The notes under the pieces: generated by a model | Told to the model about the DNA's origin: nothing | Database searches by the model: none | The model's input: the letters and a program-made list of their open reading frames with translations, nothing else | NCBI GenBank assembly: GCA_000934665.2 | Contig: KZ538323.1 | Coordinates: 1-64,000 of the forward strand | Origin: Catajapyx aquilonaris | Taxonomy: Eukaryota | Direction: 5' to 3' | Length of the DNA stretch: 64,000 bases | Shown: piece after piece, positions 8,193-62,572 of the stretch | Layout: each line of letters opens with the position of its first letter | Position numbering within the stretch: the stretch's first letter is position 1 | Program-made: the position numbers and the translations under genes

Positions 8193-8391
8193 TACTCAAT
8201 GTAGATATCATACTTTCACTAGTAATATTTCTTTCATAGTACTGCAGATAAGTAACAATCTTTATCGATGATTGATATGATCTGATATGATCTATAGCTC
8301 TCAGAAATCTTAGTTTAGTCTGATGTCAACCACTAGAATGGACACCTTGATCTCCGGATCTGCTTTCCAAGCAAACTAGCATTTATCTTAC

Positions 8392-8433
<42 letters not shown>

Positions 8434-8607
8434 CAAGGAGGAGTAGTAGTAGTAGTAGTAGTAGTACAAGGAGGAGTAGTAGTAGTAGTAGTAGTAGTAC
8501 AAGGAGGAGTAGTAGTAGTAGTAGTAGTAGTACAAGTAGCAACAGTAGTAGTAGTAGTAGTAGTAGTACAAGTAGCAACAGTAGTAGTAGTAGTAGTAGT
8601 AGTAGTA
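8392..8607. repeat. Compound (gta)n microsatellite with higher-order caaggagga / caagtagcaaca interruptions
   Basis: Directly visible; continues as (agt)n at ~9035-9094 on the far side of SINE B. Confidence 0.95.
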
Positions 8608-9096
<489 letters not shown>

Positions 9097-9274
9097 CTCC
9101 AGACTATATTTCTTCATTACACTAATGAGTGAGAATAAATATAACTTCACAATAATTAAGACAAATTTGTACGAGTTAATATGCAGACCTCTGTTACTTA
9201 ACAATTGTATTTGTATCTAATACAGGTTCAATGGAAGAGAAGGGGACCATGAACAAGCTTATACGGCCACAAGA

Positions 9275-18910: not shown

Positions 18911-21013
18911 CTAATCCCAAAGCTTGATGACTCCGTCCCATCCAGCCGAGGCAACTTTGGAAGTTTCATGCGGATGCCACAGTATCCCAGAGCAGACGCC
19001 ATCATGCGCCTTCCACTTGCTGTACAATTTTGTGGTCTTCCAGTCCCACACGTAGCACTTCCCGTCAGCATCACCCGACACCAGGTAACTGCAAAAGGTT
19101 TGATGATGTTACAGAGCATTGTCACGTACGGCTAGATGCAATTTTGGCACGTGTCAACGGCCGTTTAAATGAAGGAATCTGTCACAAAGAGAGACCAACC
19201 TCATGTCCGGTGAGAAGTCAAGCATGCAGGCGTATCCTGCAACCATGTGTCCGGTGAAGGTCTTCTTCCTGTTCATCTTGAATCGGTTGAGGGCAGAGAA
19301 GATGACAATCTTGTTGTCCATGCTCTGACAGGCCAGCCACTTCTGGTTGGGTGAAGCTGTGACTGCAGGCATCGAGTGCATACTTGGGTCCGCTATGTAC
19401 TTCATGTCGACTGGGATGTCCCTATTCAAGAGAAGTATGTGAGGAACATTTAGGCTTGAGTTGGACGACTACTTACCATTCCCAGACGCGCAAACTCTTG
19501 TCATCAGAGGTGGTGACAAAGCGACGGTTGTCGTCGACAAACGTGATCGTGTTGACAGCGCCCAGATGGCGATCGTACTCCTGTACTATCTCACCTGAAC
19601 GAATGTCCCACTGCAGAGAGGTACATGTACTTAGTAACCCATCAAGTGTCAGTAATTTTCAAAATACTCACGCATATGATCTTCTTGTCGGATGTCCCTG
19701 CGACAAACAAGTGTTGCTTGTCCTCATCCGGATTGAACTTGACGCAATAGGCAATCTTCCTGCAGGTAAACCGTGACACGCAAGTCCCCTTCTCCGTGTC
19801 CCACAGCTTGATGTACCTGTCGTACGCCGCCGAGAGGAACTGCTTTCCATTGTTGCTGAAGCACACATCCCTGACGCTCTGCCGATGCCCAATGTAGGTC
19901 CTCACGCACCTCCTGTCCTTGTACACCTCCCACAGCTTGACCCTGCAGTCCATACTTGAGGACAGGAGAAGGTGGGCTGTGCGTGGGAACCAACGTATTG
20001 CAGACACCCCCTTCTTGTGTCCCTGCCAGGTGTGCACGAGCTTCTTCGGAATGAAGCACTTCTCTGGTGGGTCGTCGGTGTGCAGGTTGACATCCACATC
20101 GTGAGGAGCGTGAAGGAACGACCGTCCCTGGTAATCCGTGGCTTCTTTGACTGCAAGAGAGACTCATTGAACATACTGCTCAACCACACAAATGGGTTGA
20201 ACTTACTGTGCAAGATAGACTTCTCCTCGATGGGTTTGTCGTCTGTGAACTTCCCCTTCTTCTGCCTCTTGGCCAGTATTTCCTCCAACTCGGCAGCCTC
20301 CTCCTCCGTCGGCCGCACTACTCTCTGCTCATCCACAAACCCGGCCCACGGACCCAAAAACCCATCAATGTCCCCTGGATTGTTATTCTTCTTCTTCCGC
20401 CTCTTATCCAAAGGCCGATTCCCTGTGCTTTCAAATATAGTTTTCCCATCCATTTCCTTCGCCGCTTCCGACTGACCCACCAGCTTGGTTCCCTCGCTCG
20501 TACTGACATCCACCGTGGGATCCAAAGCGTATCCGAAGCTCGCAAAAGTCCTCCGCTGCACCTCAAACTGGAAGTCATTAATATGCGCCGGTTCCACATA
20601 CCCCGCAATCATATTCTTAGGCGCCTTTTGCTGCGTACTCTTAAACGGATTAGTCGGCCCAACTTCAGGTGCGAACAGCTCCTCATACCTTGGGTTGAAT
20701 GTCAACTCCTTACAATTCGGATCCACAGGCTTCACCGGATCAAGCTCATTCTGTAATTATTATTAATTATTAATTATTCTGCACCAATTTTTTTCCTTGT
20801 TGTTCTTACGTTGTGTGTTACTTCAGGCGCGGCGCAAACCTGCAGCTTGTTCTGCAGCGCCGCGATGCTCCCTCCTCCTTCCAACGGCAGAAGATGCTGC
20901 GCCACCGTCTCCCCCATCGACGACGATCCTCCAGTCCTAAGATACTCATCTTCAGACTCACTTTCCTCGCTACTTGTCCCGTAATTACTTCGCAACGCAA
21001 GAATTCCGGCCAT
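18911..21013 (-). CDS. CDC40: Pre-mRNA-processing factor 17 (CDC40/PRP17), WD40 splicing factor, ~586 aa; exons 21013-20810, 20750-20207, 20150-19672, 19610-19477, 19421-19200, 19088-18911
   Basis: Diagnostic motifs [76 protein letters not shown] and [21 protein letters not shown]. All introns are GT-AG with consistent phases. AATAAA on the minus strand near 18850. Confidence 0.97.
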
Positions 21014-24679: not shown

Positions 24680-25608
24680 CGCTCCCATTTTTAAAAAATT
24701 GTTGGATTTTACGATTTGCTTGTGTTTATGGGCTTAAGTTATTGGAGGCGAGAATCCATTATAAATTGAGCAGTTTGAAGCCTTACAAACGACTGACAGG
24801 ATGCTTCCGTTGCACACTGCATTAAGCTGACACCTGGTGTAAGTGGTTCCGGCTCAATAATAGGATTGTCAATATTGTGGGAGCCTGCAGTAGGCTCATC
24901 TTTTAACCAGCAATGCAGCCACAGGAATCCTAGCTTGTGTTGCAACCTGACACTCGTATGTGTTGCTTTGAAATTGAGAAAATTCAATGGGACGTAAGTT
25001 TTTATTTCATTTTGCAGCATGTGATTGTTATATATTTATTTTGTAGTTGGGGAGCGTAGACAGGATGATACTGCCGACTGTTATCTAGTTATCTAGTTAT
25101 CAGCCATATCAATATTTTTTCAGTCGTGGTTCAAAGGACTTTTCACCTAANCGCTCCCATTTTAAAAAAAGTTGTTGGATTTTACGATTTGCTTGTGTTT
25201 ATGAGCGAGAATCCATTATAAATTGAGCAGTTTGGAGCCTTACAAACGACTGACAGGATGCTTCCGTTGCACACTGCATTAAGCTGACACCTGGTGTAAG
25301 TGGTTCCGGCTCAATAATAGGATTGTCAATATTGTGGGAGCCTGCAGTAGGCTCATCTTTTAACCAGCAATGCAGCCACAGGAATCCTAGCTTGTGTTGC
25401 AACCTGACACTCGTATGTGTTGCTTTGAAATTGAGAAAATTCAATGGGACGTAAGTTTTTATTTCATTTTGCAGCATGTGATTGTTATATATTTATTTTG
25501 TAGTTGGGGAGCGTAGACAGGATGATACTGCCGACTGTTATCTAGTTATCTAGTTATCAGCCATATCAATATTTTTTCAGTCGTGGTTCAAAGGACTTTT
25601 CACCTAAT
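24680..25608. repeat. Near-identical ~460-bp tandem duplication split by a single N (probable assembly artefact)
   Basis: 24680-25150 and 25152-25608 differ only by a few indels or substitutions near the start. The N at 25151 is exactly at the junction. Confidence 0.85.
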
Positions 25609-25956: not shown

Positions 25957-28900
25957 ATGCCGCTCCCAAAGCGTGTTGTGGAACCCGTGCATGTGTCCCG
26001 CGGGACTATTCCGGACCACTTCCCGCTACCAAACGACCTGGAAGCAGTGACCAACGGGAGCCTGGCAAACATAGTTCGTCAGCTTTCCAGTCTGAGCAAA
26101 CATGCAGAAGAAATGTTTGGCGAACTTTCCCGGGAAGCCGAGGGGCTTGCAGTCAGGAGTAACAGTCTCCAGGCTCGAATTGACAGGCTCGCAATCAAGG
26201 TCACGCAACTGGACAGCAACGTCGAGGAGGGTCAGTCATTAGTACTACTGTTTCGCCTGATCAAATTGGAAGATGCCAGTTCAAAGGCCTGCTAATAAAA
26301 ATATCCCAACTCTAATTAATGTCGACTGCATCATGTTATTTGTGTTGAAATTTCTGAAATTAGTAAAGAAAAGAAGTGGGTCAATTTTTTAATAATAATT
26401 ATTGTCCATTTTTTTTAATGCCTGAAAGTTATGAAGGAGAAATTATCCAATCAGCACTTGTCATATTCGAAACCAATTTGACGAGTAGCTCATAATTTTG
26501 TGCTTCAAATTTTGTTAAGCATAATAATTGAAAAACGGCGTAATCATGAAGCTAGTGACTGTGAGTAACTGACATTCAAAACGAGGAAATGACAAATGCA
26601 GGAAATGGATATGTTCAGCCGCTTGATAACGAGAGTATTTTGAGTAATCATCTGCCTCATAATCCCTATGGTTATGTTGTTTTTTTTCCTGGAGTCTAAT
26701 GAATGTTTTTAATCCTTCTCAACAGTGTCACTTCAAGATATTCACATGAGGAAGGCGTTCAAGAGCACGGTTGTGTTTGACCAGCAAGTGTTTTCAAGGG
26801 ACACAATGCCTCTGTCAATGCTCGAAACATACAGGTTATGCGACAAACCTCCGCCGTTGGATAAGCTCAACCCATACAGGTTACTATTCACATTACGCCA
26901 TAAATGGATCAATTGATTTTAACATGAGTTTCTCGCTTTAGGGAGGATGGAAAGGATGGACTGAAATTCTACACTGATCCAGACTACTTCTTCGAGCTGT
27001 GGAAGCAGGAGATGATCAAGGACACCGAACGTATGATGCATGACAGAGGAAAGAAGGTACGGTTTTCGCTTGAGTTTGTCGCTGTTAAACACCTCGCGAC
27101 CGCAATGAGAATTGACAAAATGTTCTTTCTTCCACCGATAGCACTCGCAATTAGGAGAGCCTACTCATGAGGCAAGTGTCATACGCAATTACGCATGTAG
27201 CTTTAGTCTCATTTTGTTGTTCCCCCCCCCCCCCCCCCCNNNNNNNNNNNNNNNNNNNNNNNNNNNNNNNNNNNNNNNNNCCCCCCCCCCCCCCCCCTCA
27301 TGTCCCTGTAGAGTTTTTGCACTGCATGTTGTACGCCTTGGCAGGCGCAAATGATAGCAACAGGCATTTTTGATAAGTGCATGAAATCTGTCGCCATTAT
27401 TTGCACCCGTTTCCATCTGAGTTGAAAATTGCATAGCTTTTGGTAACCCTTTGTTCAAGTGTGACAGAGACATAACGGGTTAGAGAGCTTACCGTAACAC
27501 GTAATAAGGCTGACAAAAAAAGGACCTCTTTCCACATTGTTGCCTTTATTGTCTGCTAAAAAGAAGGTCAGGTCAAAACTTTTGGAGACAAAGGATCACA
27601 GGTTTAATGTAGTGGAACATATTTGCATAACAAGGCAAGGGGGAAGAGTATTTTTTTTCAATGTTGCGTAAAAAGTCCAGTGGAAAGGTTGGTAGCTTAG
27701 ATTCCTCGTAGTTTGCACTGTTTTTTTTTTGTTTTTTTTGGTGACTGAGCTTGGTGTGTTTTGCTGCTGTAATACTTTTTTTTTTTACTGATTGCAAGAG
27801 AGTGTATGTAACAGCTGGTGTTCTTTCCGCTTGGTTTGTTGCCCCAGCCACACAAACCGAGGGCAGAAGGCGGTGGGAGGCACAAGAAGCGGGTTAGGCA
27901 GCCGCACAACACACGGGAGAGGCAACGGCAGATTGCCGTGGGGCATGGCGAATACATCATGCCTCAGAATTCACACTACCATGCATCACAAGTAAGCCTT
28001 GCCATTTTTGTGCGAAAAAACTAAACGATTTTTGCCAGTTGAATGCCCCTTATTTTTTGTGCCGAATGCAGGCAGCGAATGGAAAGTGTGCTGTGCAGTG
28101 TGGGTTCAGTGGAAAACTGGTGTTAACTAGGCCCCCTTTTGATTTCTTCCCTACTAAATGCCGCTTCGTTTATCTTTTAAACATGTGTGAGGATTATTAT
28201 AAAATGTATTTGCTATTGACAATTACGGTACAGTGACACCTGCTTGTGGGAGATCCTAAATCGAGCAGAAACTTGTCCAATTATTGTCTCGACAGATTAC
28301 AGAGACTTTTCATCATGTATATTGGATATGTGCTACAGGCAGGTTTCACCGTGTATTGAAGCTGCATAAATCGTTGATGCGATTCAAGTGTCTCTAAAAT
28401 ACATTTAACTGAAAATGAAATGGCTGCATAATCATACCAGGAATATTTAATTTGCAGATATTACTGTTGTAATGTCTGACTCAAATATCCACTGAACTTG
28501 TAGATATTGCATGGTACATCAAATTAGTCAAAAAAAAAAAACAAGTTCATGGGGTCAATTTGAAGCCGGCCTGTTAGTTATAACATTTTTGACCAAGTTC
28601 ATTGTGGGTAGAATCTGGAAATTGACCTCCGTTGAGAAAGTGATCTGTCAGTGTAATATAAGTTGTAGCAAATACTTTTTTTTCTCCGTAGATTAGACTT
28701 ATTCTGTACACAGGTTGACAACTGAAATTAATATTGGTAGAACTTTAGGATTTTCAGGGACTCATTGCATGTCATAATAGCGTAGAGCTAGTCGCAAGAG
28801 GGACAGATGTACTCGAGACATTACTTGTACATTAGACTCGACTGGGAGGTATGCCTGGATCATTCCTATGTCATTGTGACTCCAAATTGTGTGTCTCTGT

Positions 28901-31900
28901 CCCTCCAGTGTTGTTGTAGCTTAATGTAAGCGCACAATATCTTGGACTGTAGCTGGGTGCACATGTAAAAATTGCGCCAATCACCTAGATGCACATAATG
29001 TTGACCCTGATGTTCATTTGCCTGTAGGCTTATTGGGAGAACAGGAAAATACGTCAGTTGCGTATTGAAATTTTCAGATTTGTGCTACTGGAAATGTGAA
29101 AGCTTAGTGCTTGTTACTTATACTGCAATATGTTGTGATCAACATAAGGTAAAAATGTCATATGACTTAGGAAGCACCAGGAATGTTTAAAATGTGTGTA
29201 GCTTTATATCTATGAGAGATTAGGATACCAGAAAATATGTGAATCGTATCAGTATTATAATTAGTCTAGAGTATTGTCATCGTTACACTACTGTGAAATC
29301 TATATTCTGAATGGATTTTTGTTAAAGTGCGACAGATCTATTGCATATCCCATGTAACTATCACAAAAAAATTATTTGCTGCGTCCATTGCAGACAGATT
29401 TCACAGCAGATGGAAGACTTCTGACGTTCATTTTTCATTTTGTTTTTTAGTCACATGATTTTCATTTCAAGAGCATTTCTGTCCTAGAAGTTTTCTAACT
29501 GTTCCCCCTTTCACCCAGCCCATGCAGCAGCACATAGAGGAGACGATCTCGATCCAGGAGCAGAAGCCGTCCCGCCCGAACAGCATTGAGATCAAGAAGA
29601 ACTATCCGCCGCATGTGTCGGAGGACGGTCCATACAGTCCTCGACATCTCAGGAGTCCCGTCTCTGCTGCATCTACTGCCACCTCCACCGACCCACCGCA
29701 GTATAGGCAGAGTTCTCCGAGACCCTATGACGAAATGTACCAGTACAACACCTCCCAGTATGCGCTTGATCTCTACAACAGTGCTGCTGCATCAGTTCAA
29801 ACACCAACAAGGGCAGTGTCACGGGCTTCATCTCAGAGGCCATCTCAGCCACCTCCTGCTCCACCACCTGTACAAGCAGGGTCAGGTGCTTCAACGCCAA
29901 CTCCCTCTTCAACATCAACACCTACAAGGATGCGCAGCATGAGTGGTCGTGAGAGCCTACCGCCTCCACCACTGCCTCCAGTCGACACCATTCCAGTCAA
30001 TGGCACATCGCCAGCAGTAGCCCGTGTCAATCACGTGTCTGCAACATCATCTGCGCACTCGACACCAACACATGGACAATATCCTAGGGCGGTACCAGTT
30101 GCACCTCTGGTTGCAGCGGCAGTAGAAGCATTTGGAAACCACATTGACGAAGCTGGTGACTTGCCGCCGCCGCCACCTACACCTGACCAACAAGCAAGGG
30201 CATCGTCGGAGGACAGGATGATGCCCCCACCATCTCCGCCACCTCCACCACCAACCGTGGCACCAATAGAGAGCGTAGTACATCCAACCCCGCCACCTCC
30301 ACCTCCTCCTCCACCGTTGCCCGAGATCATGTCAAATGGACCTACGACTGCACCTCTTGTCAATGGAGACATGAAGAGTATGGTGAAACAGGTGCGTTTA
30401 GGAAAGGCTACATGCTCTAACCATGTGCAAGTTACTGGTTAGACTGTGACTTCCAGATGATTTTAAAACGAAATTAATAATTATTTCCTTCATGTAGAAT
30501 TCTGGCTCTCCGCCTCCAAAGTCATCATCCCCTCCGAAACAGCAGACGGAAGTGTCTGCGGCCAACTCACCCAAGAACAAGAACCTTCCTGATGCACCTT
30601 GCGAGGCCAGGTCAGATCTACTCAAGGCAATCCGCGATGGTAGGCATTCACATGAAATTATTAATTCTTTGACTCACACTCTCTCACAAGATTTCTTGAA
30701 ATAGTGTTTTTTGCTATCTGCTCTAAAGAGGAAGGCTAAGGTGGTCAATGTCAAGTAAAATTACATGTTGATCTTGTTGTCGATTTGTAAGCCCTCGTTG
30801 CAAAATTTGTGTCGAAGTTATTCTGCATAAATGCAGCAAATGGTCAGTGTTGATTTTCTTCCCAAGGCTGCAGATGTACGACAAAAGTGCAATTGCTCGA
30901 TGTTTGTACTTGTGTGGGGGTTGTTGCATTGACTAGTTGCAGCCTTGAACACCCACAGTTCGTTTCATTTATTGGTCACTGAACTCGGAGATCCATTGCA
31001 TACAAGGAAGTCTCCGTTCAGAGAAAATCATATTAAAATATAATTTGGAATTTGACAGATCACTATCATGACAATCTACAAATTGCAGAAGGATAATTGG
31101 CACGTGAAAGTTTTCCTTCCCAATGTCAGTAATGCATATTCATAATCCGTAGATTTGACCTTGATCCAATTCTGGCTGCAAAATAAAAAGGTGCTGCAGT
31201 TACTAATTTCGCTGTCAGGTATTGCAAAATTTTAGAGAAGGTTCTTCCTCAATTGATGTTAATTGGGAGTGGCCTGAACCAAGGTCCAATAATTGTATGA
31301 ATGATAATTAAGGTCAAATCTCAGATTATTACCTGCAACTAATGGTCAATAAGATGAAAACATTCCATCACGTCTCAACAACTTTGCTGAAATTCCAGTG
31401 GTATTGTGCTCTAATCGTACTGTACAGTGTTGGACATGAATCGCGTCGTACTGCTAGCGACATTTTCCGAAGCGGCAGAAGAACGAATCTTGCTCGTACG
31501 GCTTGCACTATCCATTGCTTCAATTCGTTCTTCTGCCGCTTCGGAAAATGTTGCTAGCAGTATGAGGGATTAATGTCCAACACTGTACGGTATGTGAAGA
31601 TTACGCTATTCGCTACTACATATTCACGTTGCTGGAATTTCTCTAAAGCCGGAGACATTCGTGATAGAGTGTTGCCACTTTTTGGCCGTAATACATATAA
31701 TGTGTAAAGATGATTTATCCCTCAGTGTATTTGCTTGTTTTTGCAGGTGGCAATTTTAAAATTATGATGCGGTACTCTTGCAGGCAAAAAGTGGGCGTGT
31801 GGCAGTTCATGTTGATCACATCATTTCAAAACAAAGCAACATATCTCTTGCTGATAACTATTTTTATGGGGGTTTAGAAACAGCTGTCATGTGGCTCTTG

Positions 31901-43422: not shown

Positions 43423-45314
43423 TGAACTTGACGACAAAAAAAACAAACTCTCCTAATTTTTAGTCTATATTCCTAAACTTTGTGCTGAATGAGGGATCCA
43501 CTTAACATGCGGTTTCCTCCGTCCCTAAGTGTATTATGGTGTAGTTGTACATGTTTTATCACTACTGACTACCATTTTTCTGTTGCAATATCCCACAACA
43601 AGGGCAGAGTTTCAAAAAAAATATATATTGAATTTATTGTTGGAGGATTGCTAAGTAAACGCTTTAAAAAAAAAAATCACTAGTTAATAGTTGAATTCAC
43701 GTGATGTTGAGCAATGCAACAAAAAAATATCCTTGCATAAGAAATGGATAAAAATAATGGTGCAGGTGTGAATAATAAATATGTGACCTTGTTGATATCA
43801 GGACAGGATATTTTATAGCTTCAGTTTTCGTATTGTTAAGACTTTAAATTGCTAGTGCCAATCTCAATGCTGTAAATATTTGTTAGCTGAATTTAGCTTG
43901 ATTAAGTTATATGCATTATTGTAGTACTATATTATTTTGTACAGAGTTGTTGTACAGCAGCCATTTTCATTCATAACTGTAGCGTGTGCATTTCAGTTTA
44001 TTTAACTTTGAACAAAAGGCTGTCAGTTCATTCATTTGTCTTCAAGCAATATTTTGTTACATACGTACATAGATCTTTTGCGAAGGAGTATATCTGTGCA
44101 GAGTTTAGTAATTTAAGCATATGTAGTTGCAATTTTACCTTTAATGAAAGGTTTGCATCCAAAGCCATAGTGGAAGCGATTGGAAGTCGTATTTATTTTT
44201 TGTGACAAAATACTATTGCATGTTGGCAAAAACTATTCAGAATATTATGGTGTTTTTGGTCTGTTATGAGGAATGGGAAGCTTTCTTAAAGCGTGATGGG
44301 ATCAAATTTTTTTCTTATATGATTTCTACTATAACTTGATTTTTTTTTTCTTCCACTGACGCAGCAGATAAAACAGAATCACTGTAAATAGATCAGTAAA
44401 AAAGCGCTGTTGCATAGAGCATATTTTCACCAAAACTGTGACTGACTTTTTTATGTTTGTATTTGTTGGTAAAAAAATAACTCTTTTGATTTACTCGATG
44501 TTTGTCAATGTTGGTATGTATATTAAGTTTTTTTTTGCAATGCATAATAATGCACTAGTACATAATATGCTTTACTGTGAAGCACTCTTTTTGTTTACTT
44601 GAACGCATTTCTTATAGATAAACCAAACAGTTACCAAACAGAAATACATGTTTACTATAATGATGGTTATACGCTGCATTTAAATATTTTTTTCTGATAT
44701 CCTGCGTTGAACCTAACATTTGTTCCAATATTCCTTGTTGCATAAATCCAACTTTAGCACACCTTTCCCCTTGCCATGACCTTTAGATCATCTTAGCAGA
44801 TTGCTGCAGTATGCAAGTAGTTATATAACAAGGCAAGTCCCGAAAAATCACCTGTCCTAACGGGGGGCCCATTAAGCCACACCCTGCCATGTCTGATAAC
44901 TGGAAAGGGTCAAGGTCACTTGGGCAAAGTCAGCCCCGGTAGATTTATATCCGGTTAGGAAATGACGAATTGCACACGATTTGTCGCCGAATTTGTCTTT
45001 GGGCACAGGAAACTTAGCGAACTTACCAGTACCTGACAGTGACAGCCTCATTTACAAAAAAAATTTGTTCTTAATTATTATTGTAAGATTAGGGTTTATT
45101 TATGGTAAAGTCAGTAGTAAGCTGGTAATAAACACACATTGCCGCAGAGTGGTCCAACCAGTGACTTATTGGTGATAGGTGACTCATGTGACTGGTGTGA
45201 CAGGCCGAGATGATTGGACATATGACTGGCGATGATTTCATGAGTGACTGGGTCTCATGCTGCCAGCAGTCTGTCGTCTGAAACCGACATTGTTGTGCAT
45301 AACCAAAGACTGTC

Positions 45315-46585
45315 ATGTTGTTGCAAGATTTGCTTGAAGGCGCTCAGAAAAGGAGGTAAGTTAATTGCAAACCATATTTGCACAAACTCACATACTGTAG
45401 TACTTGGCAAAACAGCAATGTACAGGGTGTGTTCCTTTTTTTGCTGCCTGCCTGGACAGACTCGTATCATTCCAGTTTATTTCCAGACGCGACACTACGA
45501 TTCCGGCTTCCTTCTCCAGTCTGCCCCCCGAGGTCAAGCTGAAGATCTTGGCCTACCTGTCCCCGAGTGACCGTCTCCTGAGAGCATCCCTGGTCTGCTC
45601 AGAGTGGAAGACACTCTGTGAGGATCCCCATCTGTGGAAGGAGGACCTGACCATCACCCGGATCTTTGTGTCCCATAATGATGGAACCCTGTTCCGGATA
45701 CTGACCAAGTTCCCCTTGCTGAAGAAATTGGTGTTCTTCTACTTGGCCAGAAGTGACAATCCCGGACTGGACATTTGTCACGGAGGTCTGGAAGTGACAG
45801 AGACGGTCGTGGTTCAAAGCAGTGATGCAGTCTCTACCAGATTTGCTAGTGGAAAAAGCAGTATCCGTCTCCAAGAGATGACCCACTGGGAAGGTAACAC
45901 TGTCCAAGTGTACGGACTAGGACTTGCTTCTGATCACCTGGACATCAGTGTTCCTCGCTTCTTCGATTCCAACGTCTATCTATTCGCTGATAGCCGAATC
46001 TGCTCAACGGACTCTGAGGTACAAATGTTGTTGAGTGTCTTGGACAAGAGGTATATTAAAGGCGTGGTAGCTTACGGGATGCTGCAGGATCACTCCTACG
46101 ATCTGCTGGCAGGCTGCTGTAACATGGTGAGTGTTGAGCTGTGTTTGTCTCAAGAGGGAATATCAGAGAGGAACCTGGTGAATGGGTTAGGAGCACTCAG
46201 GAACCTGACGTATCTCACATTGTCTTTTGACTCTTGTGATTCAAGCCCAAGTTCTGAAGCATTCCAGGCCTTCTTTTCCGGACCTGTCTTTCCGAACCTT
46301 CTTACCCTTTCAATAACGAAAGCTCCAGGGTTGGACGACACCTGTTCAAGTCTGATTGTGTCCAGCTGCCCCTCCCTACGTGATCTGTACCTTAATCACA
46401 CAAATGTGACTGCCATCGGCTTACGAACCATAGTCAGTGGGTGCGACAATCTGAAAAAAGTGTACGTCAAGCCACTATGCGACGAGCAAAATTTTCCATC
46501 GGACATACTGATGATCTCTCTGATGCGACCAAACCTTGTCGTTGTCTTCTGGTACCGTGGCAGGCATGAATCTGTTATAATCTGA
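45315..46585 (+). CDS. F-box/LRR-repeat protein, paralog 1, ~379 aa; exons 45315-45355, 45487-46585
   Basis: F-box FSSLPPEVKLKILAYLSPSDRLLRASLVCSEWKTLCEDPHLW and C-terminal LRRs (CPSLRDLYLNHTNVTAIGLRTIVSGCDNLKKV). The upstream exon MLLQDLLEGAQKR splices in frame (GTAAGT / ttccAG). AATAAA at 46621. Confidence 0.88.
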
Positions 46586-47493
46586 CATTTGTTAAGAAAA
46601 GGGACACACAGCTAGTAGAAAATAAATGTTCATCCTCATTCAACTGATGTGTTTATTTCCTAAACCCATACTTATGTGGGAGCCATTTGGAAGGGGTCTA
46701 ATTGTCCACCATATTTCGGGGATGGAAGGGGCGGAGCTGGAACGAGAGATTTTGGGCAACCAGGCAACCAGTGAATTGGTCACACAAGTTGAGGAAGGCT
46801 AGGACGAGAAGGATCGTTTTTAAAACCCCCTAGTTGCTTGTTTGGACCTGCTTTTGCATTTGGAAGGATCCCCACTCAGCAATTAGACGTCCCAGTGCCT
46901 CGTCCAGTGGTGTCCAGCAGAGGACTGTCCTGTGAAAGCGTACACTTCATCTATGTGTACGGAAGGTAATTATTATTATTTATCTGTTGGAAAAGTTGAC
47001 TGAAGGCGGTCAAATGCAGCTGGAGGGTGTGCCCAGCAGGAAATGCAGCCATAGTAGTTAACCAGGAGCCGTGTTTGATAGTGGATACTACAGTTAATGA
47101 ATTATTGGAAAATATTTTTAATCCATGATGTAGGGCAATAATTACAATAATTTTCCAAGTTTAAATTGGACGCAGTTCAAATCCTGAAATAATATTTATC
47201 CTAAATTTGCATGGTATTGGCAGTATGATCAATATTTTTGAGCGATAAATACAGTATTATCATAATGAGTAGAAATTTTTATGCAATATTTGAAATTTTG
47301 TGCCTATAATACGTGTCACCCTTCAGCAACACGGTTGGAAGGCGAAATCTTTTATGAACTCATTTCTTGAGCTCCCCACTTTGACGAATTAAAAGTCATT
47401 TTGACAAATGGTTGTCATTGGATGGGCCTGTTTCTCCCAATGTCACCAACCTGATTACATGGGTTACATTTCTATCTCCAGGAAGGAATTACG

Positions 47494-48540
47494 ATGCAGC
47501 CAGCTACCTTCTCCGACCTGCCCTCCGAGCTGAAGCTGAAGATCTTCAGGTACCTGTCCATTAGAGACCTTCTTCTGGGAGCAGCCCTGGTCTGCCAGGA
47601 ATGGAAGGCACTTGCTGAGGATCCCCATCTGTGGAAGGAGGACCTGACCATCAACCGCATCTTTGCTGATGCTGATGGAACCTTGTCTCGGATCCTGACC
47701 AAGTTCTTCTTGATGAAGAAGTTGGTGTTCTTCTACTTGACAGGATGTGGTGACGAACCCATATTTAATGTGGGTGGTCTGCTGGAGATGGTGTCGAAGC
47801 TGAGTCTGAGAAGCCGTGTGGAAGTCACGACAAGCTGTAAGGTAGTTGGAGATTTTCTTGTCAAAGAGATCACCCGCTGGACCTGCTCCCATCCAGGAGG
47901 GATCACCACCAACGTGTACGGTCTAGGTGTTAGTGTTACCCCTAAGTTTGTTTCCAAATCGTTGCGAAACTTTATGCAACGTTTTAGACCTCCCATCATA
48001 GACTGCTTCAGAATCAATGGAAACAGTGGAGGATCTGGCTCATATGACTCTGAGATACAGGCATTGTTGACTGTTCTTGACCCGAAGCACTTCAGTCAGG
48101 TAAATACATATGGTGTGTGGGAAGATCGCTCGTTTGAACTGATGGCAGGTTGCAAGAACATACAGATTCTCGAACTGAATGTTTACCCCTGTGGAATATC
48201 GGAGCCAAATCTGCTGAATGTTGTTGGAGGGTTCAACAACCTGGCGGAGCTGGTTCTAGCATTTGAAAACTTGGATGATCTGAAGGGTATGGCGGCAAGT
48301 CCCAGTACTGAAACCTTCAAAGAATTTTTCGCAGAACTGAGGTTTCCGGTTCTGACGAATCTCGAAATCGTGCATGCTCCAGGGTTGGACGACAACTGCG
48401 CGGGTCTTATACCATCTTGCTGCCCCTCCCTGCGAGAGCTCTTCCTTACTCTGACCAATGTGACAGTCATCGGCGCAGGAAAGATCGTGGCTGAATGTGA
48501 CAATCTGCATACTTTGTGCATTGCAACTCTCAGTCAGTGA
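47494..48540 (+). CDS. F-box/LRR-repeat protein, paralog 2, 348 aa, C-terminally truncated
   Basis: F-box FSDLPSELKLKIFRYLSIRDLLLGAALVCQEWKALAEDPHLW. Shares EDPHLWKEDLTI and APGLDD...CPSLR with paralog 1. Acceptor ctccAG just upstream; AATAAA near 48892. Confidence 0.85.
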   Translation: MQPATFSDLPSELKLKIFRYLSIRDLLLGAALVCQEWKALAEDPHLWKEDLTINRIFADADGTLSRILTKFFLMKKLVFFYLTGCGDEPIFNVGGLLEMVSKLSLRSRVEVTTSCKVVGDFLVKEITRWTCSHPGGITTNVYGLGVSVTPKFVSKSLRNFMQRFRPPIIDCFRINGNSGGSGSYDSEIQALLTVLDPKHFSQVNTYGVWEDRSFELMAGCKNIQILELNVYPCGISEPNLLNVVGGFNNLAELVLAFENLDDLKGMAASPSTETFKEFFAELRFPVLTNLEIVHAPGLDDNCAGLIPSCCPSLRELFLTLTNVTVIGAGKIVAECDNLHTLCIATLSQ

Positions 48541-49099
48541 TGATCAACTTTCCCCATCCGGACTCACTGATGATCTTGTAGATGCGAGAAAACCTATAGT
48601 GATTACCAGTCTGTACAATCATGGGATATCTAATTGTTTGTAATGGGGTGGTGTTGATGGAGCAATTTTAATTTCAAACCTCCAATGAAATCCCTATCCC
48701 CACTTTCCTAAAATTAATTATTGCCATTGCTGAACATTCACAGCACATTGCACATTTTTAGTTGCATTATTTATTTATTTAGATTAGGATGTGTTTGAAC
48801 ATTTATTCGGATGATCTGGAATTTTTATTGGAATGTAATAAACATTATTTAATATGAATAACTGGTTTTCCTTTCCGGCTGCAGACAATACAATAAAGAG
48901 TGAATTTTTTCAGGTTAAAATCATCCTCATTTTCAACTGATGCCTTGATTTCCTTTTCCCCCACCATAATCCCAGCCATATCCCACTGTTTCCCCGGGAA
49001 TATGTATCCATGGAAACATTGTTGTCTTTCGTACATTTTAGGATATAAAAATTAATTTGTGTCAACCAAAGAGGGGGGTAAGCTTTTCAAGAACACAGC

Positions 49100-50958
49100 A
49101 TGGCTAACCAGGAGGAGGCCACAAGTATTAATAGCCAATCGGCCATGAAGATGATCAGAGTTGTTGAAACGCCACAGATAGACTGTATTAAGGTATCGGA
49201 TATCAAGGAGGCTATAAATGACAGCAGGAAAGCCAGAAAGATGCTCCTCAGGAAATTAAGGTCACCATCGCCTTGTAACACGATGGTCAAGAGTGGGATT
49301 GTGGCCAGATGCGTCTCCTATCTGTCCAGAAAAGACATGTGAGTATGTATGGTTATGTGTTCTCGTGACGAGTAAATTTTTTGGGCTGTCCTGTGTATAG
49401 CCCTGCACTTCAGTTTGAGGCAGCGTATGTGTCAAACATCCTTGCATCCAAGTCGCCAGATCAAATCGAATCAGTGATGGTGACCGCAGGTGTCGTACCA
49501 CATCTTGTGACACTTGTAAGCTCACACAATGTGCACCTAGCAAAGCACGCTCTCCACACACTCCAAAATAGTCAACCGGACCAAACTTCCATGAAGACAG
49601 ACATTGTCCCTAACCTTTTGACCCTTATGAGATCGACCCATCCTCATGTGGCGAGGCTAGCAGTCAGAGCACTGGGAAACATCGCCTGTGAATCGCCACA
49701 ACACAACGAAATTGTTGTAAAGAAAGGTGCAGTAACCCATCTTGCGAGTCTGATAATGAGTTCAAGCCATTTGAAAGTGGTGGACCAAGCTGCCAGGACG
49801 CTAAGTCGCATCACACATCGTGCTGGACCAAACGTTACGGTCAACATCGCAAAAGTTTTGAAGCTAATCAATCCCGGCAATGCTGTAAGTCTGCGCATTG
49901 GGAATACTTGATTTGGTATTAAGAGTTGAATGTTTGCAGTATGAAGCACTACGCAGCATCATCAGACCTGCGATCATGCACTGTCTCTACAAGAACCCGT
50001 CGCCTTCCATCAAGGTCTTACGACATATTGTTCCAACTCTTTGTGAGCTTCTCAGCTCTTGTGACATGGAAGTTGTTGGTATGCACCGCGACCTGCGCAG
50101 TCCGCAGGCCTAGAAAAATGAGATCGAATAATGTTCGTCTCTATTTATGTTTCCAGCATGTGCTTGCAGAGCTTTGTTGTACATAACTGATGCCAAACAC
50201 GGATTGGTACAGAAGGTGGTGGATTCTGGTGCTGTGCATCTTCTTGTGCAGGTCTTGGAATTAGACGATGAGACGTCAGCTGTGGTTCCCATTCTGACTT
50301 CAGTGAGCCACCTGATGAAGTGCAATTGTAGTCATATGGAAGCGGTGCTCAAATGCGGTGTCCTGCACATCATCCGGAACTTGCTGGACTATCCAGAGGA
50401 CATCATAATCAAGGAAGTTGCAATGGCCATTGCGAACACAGTCAAGGATGGAAGCACGGACCAGATTCGAGCTGTCATCAGTGCTGATCTGCTCTACCCT
50501 CTAACAAAGTTCATAGCGAAGGTCAGCCTCATCATATTTAATAATTTTAAAATGTGTCAGATGATTTCAATTTTTGTACGTCCATCAATCAGTACAAAGA
50601 AAACTTTCGCATCGAGGTCTTCAACTGCAGCTACGGAAGAACTGAAGATCAAGTCCTGTACATATTTCAGCACTACATCGTACAGGCATTTTGCGACCAT
50701 CTGAGATCAAAAGACTGCGAGAGGGTTACGGTGTCTCTGGATGGAATTGCGAGCATACTAAAGGGGGCTGCGAAGGTCGGGAGAGTTGAGGAGGTGGCTC
50801 AGGTCATCAGGATTTGCAGAGGGCTGCATAGGATGATGGGGATCGTCAAGTTTCATAAGGAGCAGTGCGAATATAAGGTGTGCTGGAAGGCAGGAGACAT
50901 TATCCAACTCTACTTCAGTTCGAGCCTAAGTGCGACTGTAAGTTGTGTTGTGTTATGA
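49100..50958 (+). CDS. Divergent importin-alpha (karyopherin alpha)-like ARM-repeat protein, ~530 aa; exons 49100-49338, 49401-49884, 49940-50078, 50157-50521, 50593-50958
   Basis: PALQFEAA, AVRALGNIAC, CLYKNPSP, ACRALLYITD, VVDSGAV, KEVAMAIAN, QIRAVISADL, LDGIASIL and IIQLYFS correspond to importin-alpha ARM1-10 landmarks. Four GT-AG introns keep the frame open. AATAAA near 50982. Confidence 0.85.
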
Positions 50959-53900
50959 GAGGTGTAGACCAATTTTAAAAAAATAAATTCCATATCTAAG
51001 TGTCAACAATTTTTAAAGCACTGGTTTTTTTAAAGGGCAAAATTTCTGAAGCAGAGGACCTATTAGAATGCTGTTCTGATCACCACCCCTCCTGGCCTCC
51101 ATGTCATTTACAGGTACGTCTAATTTGCTCATGATCTGCAGCGCTAATTTTCACTGAAGCTTTAGTGTTGGGGATTCAAATCATCAGGCCAGTATAATAA
51201 TTATTATATACCAACCTGTCTTTCTAGACACATGATGAATTGGCGTCTCTTCTCCGTGACGTATTACCTTCTTCGCATGTAAGTTACATCAATTTGTTTT
51301 CTATATTTCATATACAGTGAAAAATTGGACTGTTGCTTTGTTCATTAATTAATTGGGAGGTGGATTTCGACTATTGTTGACACCACTTGTAGAGATAAGG
51401 CATTTGTATACAAAAATAACCGGCTTTGTTTTTTCCCATTCATTGTAGCCATCATGGTGTTAATTTTTTTAAACAAAATTATTGCAGAGAAGACGATTGA
51501 AACAAGAGATTATCATGACATTTTGAGCTTCTCTTCCCAACGATGACCTTCACAAACTTATGACGACAAATCATAGAGCAAGATGGAAATTCATATACAT
51601 AAATCTGTATACGCAAATAAAATTATACAATGCCATTTTTTAAATGTCTCATTATACTCGCAGAATGTTCCTATATAAATAATCCAACTCTACAGGGTAC
51701 TTCCCCGCTATAAAAAAATTTTCCTGCCGGATATTTAATTCACTTCCTGTACTATCTGACTGGATCCTCTCGCCATCTCTGGTACTCTCCATGCAACATG
51801 CACCCCCCTCTAGAGTTTTGGTCGATCAAGAGAAGTATATACAAGCCTCCCCCTGCATCGGAAAACTCTGATCCTGTGCGCTCGTCTCCATGGTCGGGTC
51901 CAGCAGCATCAGCTCCTACTGTCTCCCGAAAACATGGAGCGCAGGTGACCCACCACCACCACACAAGCGGAGGGTCAAAGGTCACCTGGTGCACATCCAT
52001 TCCAAAAATGTAGCCTCAGGATCAACTCTTGCGGTGATTTTTTCCAACAATGGTAAGTTGCAGATTTTATTGGTACTGCTTTTTTTAAAAATTGATTTAA
52101 TAGGGTTTTTTTTTTAAATAAAATATTGCGGTCCTTCCGTTTTGTATATCCGCACCCTGGAGAGGAAGTATCGATTTAGTATTTTAATGTTGGGCTTGAT
52201 CGGACTGGGAAGGGATGCTGCGCTTCAATGTCACGGACCTTCTGTAAAATGGGCAAAATGTAAACAGCATCTGGGCTTATTCATGCTTGATGTCTCCGCT
52301 TGTTCAACTGATTAAAATGGGCAAATTATGTGGCTCTAATTATTGATGTTACTTATATGATGGTCGGCAAAGCAGAGTTGGAGCATAATAATATTATTGC
52401 CGAATATGCGTCGTTTTATTCCGTTTAGTGCACACAAAAAAAAAATATGCTGAATCGTCACTTTTAAATACCTAAAATTATGTTCGGTGTGATGTAGCCT
52501 GCAAATGCCAATAATTAAATCACAAATTTTCTAGAAATATTGTAATTTAAAAAAATCGCAAAATGTAGGATTAAGTAATTGCGCCAGAAAATAATACTTT
52601 TAATTAAGCTGATATTTAGTCCTGCGATGTAATTGAAATGCGAGCTCTTTGATCTCATTATGTCAAAAAAATGGCAATAAGAATCAAATTTCCGTTTCAA
52701 ATGTAATATTTCCAGTCGTTCGGGCAATTCATTTCCTCTTTCATGTGTATCCAACTAAATAAAAAGTCAATTTAAAAAAACTGCAGCTCATTGTTTGCGC
52801 GATTTTAAAAAAATTTATTGCAATAGGATTTTAATAGCTACTAAATTGTGCGTCGGCTTGGGTGTACTGTAAAAGGGATATGTTAGGAAATAATTTTATT
52901 CAAATGTATTCCGCGTTGTCAACGTTCGTTAAAAATTACGAGAGCAATATCCTCCATGTGCGACGGAATTTCTCATTTCGCATTTTTGCTGGCACAAAAA
53001 TCAATGGTTCTGCTCTTTTTTATACAAAAAAAAATCTGGCCGGTATTTTATTGAACTTGCTATAAAATGAAAAAAGCGGATACTTTATCCCCTTGTTGCG
53101 ATACCTTTAAAAAAAGCGCTTTATAGGACTATTTACGCACATACACATACACCGAGACTTCACTTTGAAGGTTTCGATAATTAGCGAAATGAACACACTG
53201 AAAAATTTACCAGCTCCAAACTGGGAATAATCAAACAGCATATTTAAATATGTATTGCCCAGTGTGCAGTAACATAATTACCCTCTTTTATTGATTGCTT
53301 TTTTTTGTGCACAATGATACACATTTTGTTGCACTTGCAATGAAAAAAAAGCTGGCTAATTAGTGCAAAAATACAGCTGCAACACCTCATTTCCTGAAAA
53401 GTGTTGGCATAGAACGATTGTTATGTACACTGAGAGAGTCATTCACTGATTATAAACCTGTCCGGCCCTCCATTTATATTATTGACAATTCAGTGGGATC
53501 CGGTTTTGCATGACTTTGTGATTTGTGTGATTTTGGAATGCTAATTAATACTGGGATGGCTTCACAATTTAATGCCATTTTGTAGCTTATCCAGATCAAT
53601 CACCCATCGTAGAATGTCCCTATAGGGTTGTTATACTTATCGCTACATGGTAACAATGCAGTACCATTATTGTCACAAATTTTTCCAACCCCTGAATGGT
53701 CCATATGTTGTCTCATGTTTTTCCATAAAATTATTTCCCACAGCTTCTATATAGTACGATGGAAAATTGCTTTGACGTCCCAGAGAAAGTTAGACCCTTA
53801 ATGGCTTTCACTGATAATGTAATTTCCTCACTGCCTTTCTGAAACTCTCCTCCTCTCATCTATATACCCTTCAGCATGTACACACAGAAAATCGCACCCA

Positions 53901-60632: not shown

Positions 60633-62572
60633 ATGGCTTTTTTCTTCTCTTTCTGCCGCTGCCAGCATTGCTCCAAAATTTTGCTGGTGGCTGTGTTGCT
60701 CTTCCTCTTCATCCAGTACTCCTTCAATGTCTATTACGAGAGGCAGAACGAGCCTGCAGTCTTTTCCCTGCACAACAGCACATTCTGGAGGAAGCTGGTT
60801 CCGTTCAGATTGACCACACTCACAGACAATAGTTACAAATATGGAGGAGGAGGAGGAGGAGGAACCACTTCTGCCAACATGCTCTTGGAGGCTACAACAA
60901 GAAGCGACATTTCATATCAGGTACCACCAGTATGATGCATGAATTTTTTTACGAGCGCAACCGAGTGCGCACCCACACTTGCGCAAAAACAACGTTGCCA
61001 GAGTTATTCCTCTAGGGAGCCTCTAGAGAGCCTCTAGGGAGAGATTCGCCAACTTTTGACGTCATGTCGTCTCCGATTGGCTGCAGCCATCTGGACTACT
61101 CCAGCCAATCGAAGTCGACCGTGACGTCAGAACCGGCCACTGTTTCCATAGCAAGGCAAGATGGCGGCCTCCATAGGACACGTAAACAGTTCAGCCAATC
61201 AGAGACGACGGGACGTCAGAAGTTGGCGAATCATCTCCTTAGAGCCTCCAAATAGTTGGTAGCCTCTAAGGTTCGTTTCAGAACCTTGGCAACGTCGCAA
61301 AAGTCGGCCATATTGTTACCCCATCAAACGTAGTGTTGGAAATAGTTTGCTCGAACTGTGTTTTTATATAGAAATTGCGATTGTTTGTGCCCCACAGGAG
61401 GACAACGTGACAGACATGTGGATGAGCAGCACATCGATGGAGAGTACGACCGACACATCAGTGACTGTTGGTACGACACAACTGCCACCTTGTCCTCCTG
61501 TACCGCCACTTCTAGGTAAGTTTCCAGTTCAGTTGCACCGTAGAGTGAAATTTTTTGTTCGTAGTGTATATGAGAGCAATGTCTTCTCGTTTTTTTTCTG
61601 TCGCACAGTTGGACCCCTGAGGGTGATCAAAGAAGCGCCTTCGATGGAAGAGCTGGAGAAACGCCATCCCCATCTGGAACCAGGTGGTCGGTTTAGGCCC
61701 AAAGACTGCCTATCAAGTCACAAAGTTGCCATCATCATTCCGTACAGAGACAGAGGCGAACACCTGCGCATCTTCCTCCACAACATTCATCCAATGTTGC
61801 AGAGACAGCAAATTGACTACGGAATTTACGTCGTCGAGCAACAAGGTAATTGAAAATGATCCGGAGTGGGTGGCCATAATGATTGTCTTTATTTTTTCTC
61901 TCCATATAGGAACTTCGGTGTTCAACAGGGCCATGCTGATGAACATTGGGTTTGTAGAAGCTGCGAAGGACTACGATTGGCAGTGCTTTATTTTTCATGA
62001 CGTGGATTTGATTCCGGAGGATGACAGGAACTTATATACCTGCCCGGAACAGCCTCGACATATGTCTGTTGCTATAGACAAGTTCAAGTATAGGTAGGTT
62101 TGCCAAAATTATTATTTTTTTGGACAAATATTTATAATGAAGATTTTTTTTTTGCAGGCTTCCATATGCAGACTTGTTTGGAGGAGTCAGCGCCTTGACC
62201 AAAGAGCAGTTTGAGACTGTTAATGGATTCAGCAACATGTTTTGGGGCTGGGGAGCTGAGGATGATGACATGTCCAATCGAGTTAGAAGTGCCAAATACA
62301 AAATATCTAGATATCCAGCCAATGTGGCTCGATATCAGATGTTGGGTCATAATCCTGATAAGCCAAATCCAAAGAGGTTGGTCAACTTTTGTAACACACA
62401 AAACTATATGAACATGCACTAAATTTTAATTATTTTCAGGTATGACTACTTGTACTCGGGTCGTAAGAGGTTCAAAACGGATGGGATCAACAGCGTGGAG
62501 TATGAGCGAGTGGACTTCCTTTTGAAAAGACTGTACACGTGGGTGTATGTGAAATTACCTGAACGCAGCTGA
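60633..62572 (+). CDS. Beta-1,4-N-acetylgalactosaminyltransferase (bre-4 / beta4GalNAcT-like, GT7), ~392 aa; exons 60633-60920, 61398-61515, 61609-61845, 61910-62093, 62158-62376, 62440-62572
   Basis: Type II TM anchor and motifs KVAIIIPYRDR, FNRAMLMNIGF, FHDVDLIP (DxD), QPRHMSVA and FWGWGAEDDD. LPYADLFGGV has Leu at the position equivalent to beta4GalT1 Tyr289, which indicates a UDP-GalNAc donor. Confidence 0.95.
60992..61295. mobile_element. Intronic MITE-like inverted-repeat element rich in CCAAT/CRE motifs
   Basis: Ends acgttgcca / tggcaacgt. Inner inverted pair gattcgccaacttttgacgtc / gacgtcagaagttggcgaatc. Confidence 0.7.

Follow-up and report, generated by a model that had tools for sequence, protein, structure and literature searches.

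An intron-bearing importin-alpha descendant in Catajapyx aquilonaris with extra ARM units and arginines at groove tryptophan positions

The window analysed here is a stretch of 64,000 nt from Catajapyx aquilonaris (assembly GCA_000934665.2, contig KZ538323.1, positions 1 to 64,000), which carries at 49100-50958 on the forward strand a five-exon gene for an armadillo (ARM) repeat protein. By alignment and structure matches, the gene descends from importin-alpha. It is probably a lineage-restricted, intron-bearing member of that family which has been rebuilt as an ARM scaffold and is no longer a classical import adaptor, because it has no importin-beta-binding (IBB) domain, has lost the ladder of tryptophans in its groove and carries extra units in what was the major nuclear localization signal (NLS) site. 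A first-pass annotation, made from the letters of the window, had proposed a non-importing ARM scaffold that serves as a decoy, a membrane-tethered sink or a germline factor. The scaffold part of this proposal is reasonable given the ancestry, the intact frame and the absence of both the IBB and the groove tryptophans, whereas the membrane tether rests on a C-terminal CVVL motif that may be the product of intron read-through.

Importin-alpha ancestry and the altered groove

Matches to the Pfam Arm family were obtained for exon 2 (E = 7e-16) and exon 4 (E = 1.4e-6), and exons 2, 4 and 5 match solved importin-alpha chains (e.g., 5tbk and 1ejl) in the expected order. Exon 5 matches no Pfam family and aligns with an importin alpha-3 chain of 521 residues over positions 393-487 (E = 2e-10; best match E = 1.3e-10), which corresponds to ARM9-10. 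When the exons are joined, the protein gives E = 1.9e-59 against canonical importin-alpha, and the joined protein, like exons 2, 4 and 5 taken singly, aligns with the repeats of the family in order. The importin-alpha landmarks reported in the first-pass annotation are thus confirmed.

The five exons join in frame to give 530 codons and a stop, as had been claimed, and all four introns are GT-AG (62, 55, 78 and 71 nt). Junctions 1/2, 3/4 and 4/5 each fall within continuous alignment to canonical importin-alphas. Junction 2/3 lies inside an insertion, the ARM-like unit A4b, and is for this reason beyond a homology check, being backed by splice signals and an open frame. GC content at the first, second and third codon positions (0.517/0.376/0.540) is coding-like, and the exons (0.478) are richer in GC than the introns (0.391).

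Identity to 22 canonical importin-alphas from animals, fungi and protists is 23.8-33.9%, whereas these proteins are at least 34.3% identical among themselves. The phylogeny gave the same impression of distance: in a maximum likelihood tree of 25 rows, the end branch of the protein measures 4.14 changes per column, approximately six times the median of 0.7. The tree leaves the protein unplaced on this long branch, nearest by path to an animal-type group. The E-values of the PDB matches point in two directions, as exons 4 and 5 favour alpha-3 and exon 2 favours a chain of the alpha-1/2 type.

Exon 1 has no match to the IBB family in Pfam. Its residues from about position 27 align with the pre-ARM1/ARM1 region of canonical proteins, and about 70 residues of IBB and linker are absent. 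A hidden Markov model (HMM) of IBB plus linker, built from nine canonical proteins, was run against the 3249 six-frame open reading frames (ORFs) of the window and gave no match (best E = 4.2), including upstream on the forward strand. This makes an upstream IBB exon unlikely, as does the presence of two complete F-box genes on the same strand at 45.4-48.5 kb. The frame is moreover closed by an in-frame TAA 18 nt before the ATG, so that a coding exon further upstream could be joined only through an acceptor located 3' of this TAA and ahead of the region of exon 1 with homology. The claimed absence of an IBB therefore stands, the unseen upstream exon that could have supplied one having been looked for across the ORFs of the window and not found. 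In canonical importin-alphas, the IBB binds importin-beta and autoinhibits; judged from this knowledge of the family, a protein without it would be neither coupled to importin-beta nor autoinhibited.

The losses extend to the groove, where the Trp/Asn array of canonical proteins, carried on helix 3 of ARM2-4 and ARM7-8, clamps the Lys/Arg side chains of the NLS. Conservation was scored over the 108 alignment columns with a conservation of 90% or more in the 22 canonical importin-alphas, and the protein keeps 51 of these. None of the six conserved Trp columns is kept, their places being taken by Y89, R169, R212, R292, M377 and a gap; the five Trp replacements read by eye in the first-pass annotation are all present in this alignment. 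Half of the conserved Asn columns (3/6) are retained. Leucine is kept in 12 of 15 columns, proline in 6 of 7 and alanine in 7 of 11, so that core residues are kept preferentially while the ligand-contact tryptophans are lost. The whole protein has a single Trp in 530 residues, compared with 3-9 among the 45 relatives listed.

Read unit by unit, the residues aligned with the Trp position of helix 3 are Y89, H132, R169, R212, R250, R292, T335, M377 and I416. Arginine thus occupies this position in four consecutive central units (A3b, A4a, A4b and A5), with R250 belonging to an inserted unit.

In the same alignment the protein is made of 12 ARM-like units, not 10. It differs in length from the canonical proteins by two insertions of approximately 38 residues each and by a deletion of 4 residues at the Trp of ARM8. 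Both inserted units, A3a and A4b, and the ARM8 deletion had been missed at first reading. The score of A3a against A3b is 55, the highest of all unit pairs and one that was reached by 0 of 1000 shuffles, which identifies A3a as an internal tandem duplication of ARM3. The score of A4b against A4a is 16 and was reached by 819 of 1000 shuffles, and A4b is not recognisably a copy. By their aligned positions, both inserted units sit inside the region that forms the major NLS site in canonical proteins.

Exon 2 was also folded on its own with AlphaFold2. The model has a mean predicted local distance difference test (pLDDT) score of 77.3 (> 87 for residues 71-140) and consists of eleven helices in a regular H1-H2-H3 pattern, within which A3a forms a three-helix unit of its own. 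When this model was submitted to Foldseek, the best matches were designed ARM proteins (TMq up to 0.73), and the fold is that of a regular ARM solenoid. The alignment fed to the folding of exon 2 was one repeat out of register and was not used for residue mapping. The structure check thus supports ARM units in exon 2, but the groove residues are placed by the alignment and not by the model.

One alternative is that the protein is still an NLS receptor which works independently of importin-beta, like the IBB-less, testis-enriched copies of Drosophila. IBB-less importin-alphas do exist and, in the account given by PMC8645118, have been proposed for importin-beta-independent transport, and the protein retains 3/6 conserved Asn as well as the ARM9-10 region. 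We nevertheless regard this alternative as very unlikely. No conserved Trp is left, Arg occupies four groove positions and the major site contains two inserted units, and from what is known of the Trp/Asn array such losses should abolish classical NLS binding.

Maintenance and possible function

The search for relatives that could reveal constraint gave no ortholog. A word-indexed protein search with exon 2 returned 13 matches among 596 candidates, all of the canonical type and the best at 37% identity. An exhaustive HMMER search with the same exon against 1.84 billion representatives gave 0 matches below 1e-30; among the 150 matches listed no identity exceeded 36%, and the top ones were long multi-ARM proteins. 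In two scans of metagenomes that used exons 2 and 5, 147 and 382 stretches fitted the pattern, none of which was confirmed by tblastn. Within the window, tblastn of the joined protein recovered its own exons only, the next match having E = 0.054, so that no second copy was found there. The missing ortholog is weak evidence either way, because the nearest annotated relatives are distant, as illustrated by a conserved PRP17 fragment of the window that shares no more than 66% identity with proteins of many insect orders.

These results bear on a second alternative, namely an unexpressed duplicate that is dying or died recently, with the ORF as a remnant. The empty protein and metagenome searches are compatible with such a fate, as are the extreme branch length, the deviant composition and the loss of the residues that define function. 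Set against it are 530 open codons, four GT-AG introns with intact phases, hydrophobic core columns that are kept far better than Trp, the confident folding of the exon 2 fragment as ARM units and a coding-type GC content by codon position. Neutral decay to such a distance would be expected to leave many stops and frameshifts, and none is seen, which argues for selection on the frame. A long-dead pseudogene is unlikely for the same reason, as the frame is intact despite a branch of about six times the median, and we consider a dying or recently dead duplicate improbable overall.

If the gene is instead a maintained ARM scaffold, its alignment offers some indication of what the scaffold might do. 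Arginines in place of tryptophans would make the groove basic, and a basic groove would repel classical basic NLSs. Most likely, the groove would bind extended ligands of another kind, which plausibly would be acidic or phosphorylated. In beta-catenin-type ARM proteins, a basic helix-3 groove binds extended acidic peptides, and by analogy the Arg ladder found here would work in a similar manner. The analogy is limited to the groove, as there is no sequence relationship to beta-catenin beyond the ARM repeat, whereas the present gene is clearly derived from importin-alpha. With such a groove and no IBB, the protein would serve as adaptor or sink outside the importin-beta cycle.

Several points weigh against the view of a rebuilt scaffold. 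The three conserved Asn that are kept could still permit some peptide-backbone binding of the canonical type. That the arginines line one groove follows from their alignment to helix 3 and is not seen in the model, and the class of ligand is speculation. The amino-acid composition departs from that of the importin-alpha family, no ortholog or paralog was found to show constraint, and the gene could have died recently, before it gained a stop.

If expressed, the gene would be a natural example of an importin-alpha groove that has been re-aimed at a different class of ligand. It would then be relevant to how ARM scaffolds change specificity and to designed ARM binders.

The C-terminal end

The unspliced frame ends in C-V-V-L followed by a stop, as reported in the first-pass annotation, and a CaaL end directs geranylgeranylation. 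It is doubtful, however, that CVVL is the true C-terminus of the protein, since a GTAAGT lies in phase 0 six codons upstream of the stop. This candidate donor, at 50938, has the same CT/GTAAGT core as the donor of exon 2, and in 49000-51700 the hexamer occurs three times only, each time at an accepted or a candidate donor. A prenylation signal is present only in a transcript left unspliced at 50938, and membrane tethering is thereby limited to the unspliced form.

A reading in which CVVL is real and the product is a geranylgeranylated, membrane-tethered ARM scaffold or sink has several points in its favour. Judged by the protein's own composition, an end of the type C-aliphatic-aliphatic-X has a chance of about 0.3-0.6%, and an AATAAA follows 24 nt after the stop, as for a compact 3' end; the next one is at 51616. 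There is also a precedent, in that importin-alpha lipid-anchored through palmitoylation has been described (PMC12238373, PMC13252003 and PMC8325321). In addition to the phase-0 donor, the absence of any polybasic or second lipid signal beside Cys527 and the composition of the terminal bases argue against it, as the 21 bases from the candidate donor to the stop (50938-50958) have an intron-like GC content of 0.333. We regard a tethered CVVL protein as rather unlikely.

The competing reading holds that CVVL is read-through and that the gene continues via at least two small exons (51036-51113 and 51228-51278) to a product with no lipid anchor. Both segments are open, in phase and flanked by strong donors and pyrimidine-rich acceptors, with GC contents of 0.474 and 0.451, compared with 0.276-0.368 in the candidate introns. 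Among 1000 Markov resamples of the 700 nt downstream, one gave a chain of two such segments, 20 gave a depth of one and 979 gave none; of 24 other GTAAGT sites in the window, 0 gave a chain of two and 1 a depth of one. The criteria were fixed but had been chosen after the locus was seen. The candidate introns (98, 114 and approximately 209 nt) are of sizes that fit a gene whose accepted introns measure 55-78 nt. Canonical importin-alphas have about 35-45 residues after ARM10, compared with 13 in the CVVL model, and a longer tail would be in keeping with this.

On the other side, the added residues resemble neither the canonical tail nor any Pfam family, and the GC3 values of the candidate exons (0.385 and 0.294) lie below the 0.540 of the gene, although these come from 26 and 17 codons only. 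The last exon is not fixable, as several continuations exist and the neatest has a poor pyrimidine tract. With an AATAAA at 50982, the transcript could also be cleaved ahead of the acceptor.

Taken on these grounds, read-through into further exons is an evenly balanced proposition, and the same holds for splicing at 50938 as such; both forms may exist. A product that ends in CVVL, possibly as one of two isoforms, is a tentative proposal to which we give somewhat less weight. In either case, ARM9-10 align with alpha-3 and are followed by 13 residues ending in CVVL or by an unrelated extension; in canonical importin-alphas, the ARM10 region and the acidic tail bind the export factor and Nup50. 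There is a practical warning here, namely that reading through an unrecognised splice donor can produce a C-terminal motif that is striking but artefactual.

A far-reaching combination of these elements would be a single NLS-blind, Arg-laddered gene of 12 units with a composite terminal exon and two proteins. Polyadenylation at the AATAAA at 50982 would give a geranylgeranylated, membrane-anchored CVVL form, and splicing at the GTAAGT at 50938 would replace this end by another tail and leave the protein soluble. With the two fast-diverging F-box genes that lie directly upstream, the gene could make up a lineage-specific, possibly germline, ligand-capture system, in which non-classical (acidic) ligands would be captured at membranes or handed to ubiquitin ligases. 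We consider the probability of such a system to be very low; if it were true, the importin-alpha fold would have been put to a new use, apart from the retrogene turnover of the Drosophila type.

A further possible exon-like segment was observed at 51488-51526 (+), and the small segments beyond the annotated stop, which have good splice signals, may extend the gene or belong to another transcript.

Known relatives and other features of the window

IBB-less paralogs of importin-alpha have been described in Drosophila, where they exist in addition to the canonical genes and comprise alphaKap4, alphaKap5, alphaKap6 and alphaKap2A-H (PMC8645118). According to that paper, they arose as retrogenes or partly processed retroduplicates that keep no more than one parental intron, are testis-enriched and have been linked to male-germline conflict, and in 29 non-Drosophila insects alpha1-3 were seen with no further importin-alpha duplicates (PMC8645118). 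The gene described here resembles them in having kept an importin-alpha-derived ARM array while lacking the IBB. It differs in its four GT-AG introns (55-78 nt), as opposed to retroposition with no more than one parental intron, and in the absence of the whole Trp ladder, the two added units and the extreme branch; in the passages of PMC8645118 consulted, no statement on Trp-array loss or gained ARM units was seen. The comparison with fast-evolving insect duplicates that had been drawn earlier is thus apt only in part, as the known IBB-less duplicates of Drosophila are retrogenes or partly processed retroduplicates, with none seen in the 29 other insects surveyed, and the present gene has four introns. 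Relative to the known IBB-less paralogs, the new aspects are a host that is an arthropod other than Drosophila, the presence of introns, the loss of the Trp ladder with substitution by Arg, and the gain of ARM units in the former NLS site.

Compared with canonical importin-alpha, the ARM solenoid is preserved in order from ARM1 to ARM10, and the differences lie in the IBB, the Trp and Asn columns, the two insertions and the ARM8 deletion, to which the CVVL model adds the lack of an acidic tail ending in F. Palmitoylated importin-alpha (PMC12238373, PMC13252003 and PMC8325321) is held at the membrane by lipid and acts outside nuclear import. There, palmitate is carried by a canonical NLS-binding protein, whereas the lipid here would be a doubtful C-terminal prenyl group on a derivative that appears to be NLS-blind. 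Our literature search found no paper on Trp-less or CaaX-bearing relatives of importin-alpha. Ciliates have divergent importin-alpha-like proteins, on which the same search found nothing.

The coordinates of the gene and its flanking signals are collected in Table 1. The TATAAA motif is the sole one in 48900-49100 and constitutes weak evidence for a core promoter, as the flank is AT-rich (GC 0.354). No Rfam match was found in 44000-53000, and the 1.2 kb downstream has no second copy in the window.

Table 1. Features of the importin-alpha-derived gene and its flanks (window coordinates)
Feature	Position	Strand	Description
TATAAA motif	49044..49049	+	Motif scan; 56 nt 5' of ATG; possible core promoter
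In-frame TAA stop	49079..49081	+	18 nt 5' of ATG
Exon 1	49100..49338	+	ATG, short N-terminus, ARM1, no IBB; donor GTGAGT
Exon 2	49401..49884	+	ARM2 helix 3 to unit A4a; Y89, H132, R169 and R212 at Trp positions
Unit A3a	49492..49602	+	Residues 111-147; absent from 9 canonical proteins
Unit A4b	49855..50026	+	Residues 232-270; split by intron 2 (49885-49939); absent from canonical proteins
Exon 3	49940..50078	+	End of A4b (R250), start of ARM5
Exon 4	50157..50521	+	ARM5 to start of ARM8; R292 and M377 at Trp positions
Exon 5	50593..50958	+	ARM8-ARM10; 50593..50937 is the part before the candidate donor
GTAAGT, phase 0	50938..50943	+	Candidate donor; six codons before stop; use would remove the CVVL codons
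C527-V-V-L530 and TGA	50944..50958	+	CaaX-like end of the unspliced frame
AATAAA	50982..50987	+	24 nt after stop; candidate poly(A) signal of the CVVL form
Candidate exon 6	51036..51113	+	78 nt, 26 codons; phase 0 at both ends; acceptor T-rich, donor GTACGT
Candidate exon 7	51228..51278	+	51 nt, 17 codons; phase 0 at both ends; acceptor pyrimidine-rich, donor GTAAGT

Three variants of the gene model were considered and not adopted. Fusion with the upstream F-box ORF was dismissed, as the sole acceptor-like AG before the ATG is out of frame with the donor-like site at the end of that ORF. An alternative acceptor for exon 5 gave a frame without homology. A weak in-frame donor, GTGGTG, after residue 205 in exon 2 would skip A4a, and its use is unlikely because the stretch that would be lost has an open frame and is modelled with confidence as a helix.

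Directly upstream, on the same strand, lie two tandem and apparently intronless F-box genes at 45401-46585 (+) and 47455-48540 (+). Their F-box-like matches have E-values of 2.8e-14 and 3.2e-13, and the two share 44% identity; the first also has a weak LRR_4 match (E = 1.9e-4) below the Pfam cut-off. The two F-box genes and the importin-like gene may form a lineage-specific cluster.

Elsewhere in the window, an open frame that runs off its start (3-815, +) resembles by eye the C-terminal part of a retrotransposon reverse transcriptase, and long simple repeats coding for Ser, Ile and Leu give rise to spurious ORFs on both strands at 8337-9220. Assembly gaps are present as N runs at 25151 and 27240-27280 (42 N in total). 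A Pro/Ser-rich frame of 327 codons with poly-Pro runs (29459-30442, +) is possibly formin- or WASP-like or another proline-rich exon. Exons of the splicing factor PRP17/CDC40 are located at 19642-20756 (-), with best matches of approximately 66% identity in many insect orders and none closer, and one or more exons of the beta-1,4-galactosyltransferase type (Glyco_transf_7N, E = 6.3e-30) are found at 61263-62097 (+).

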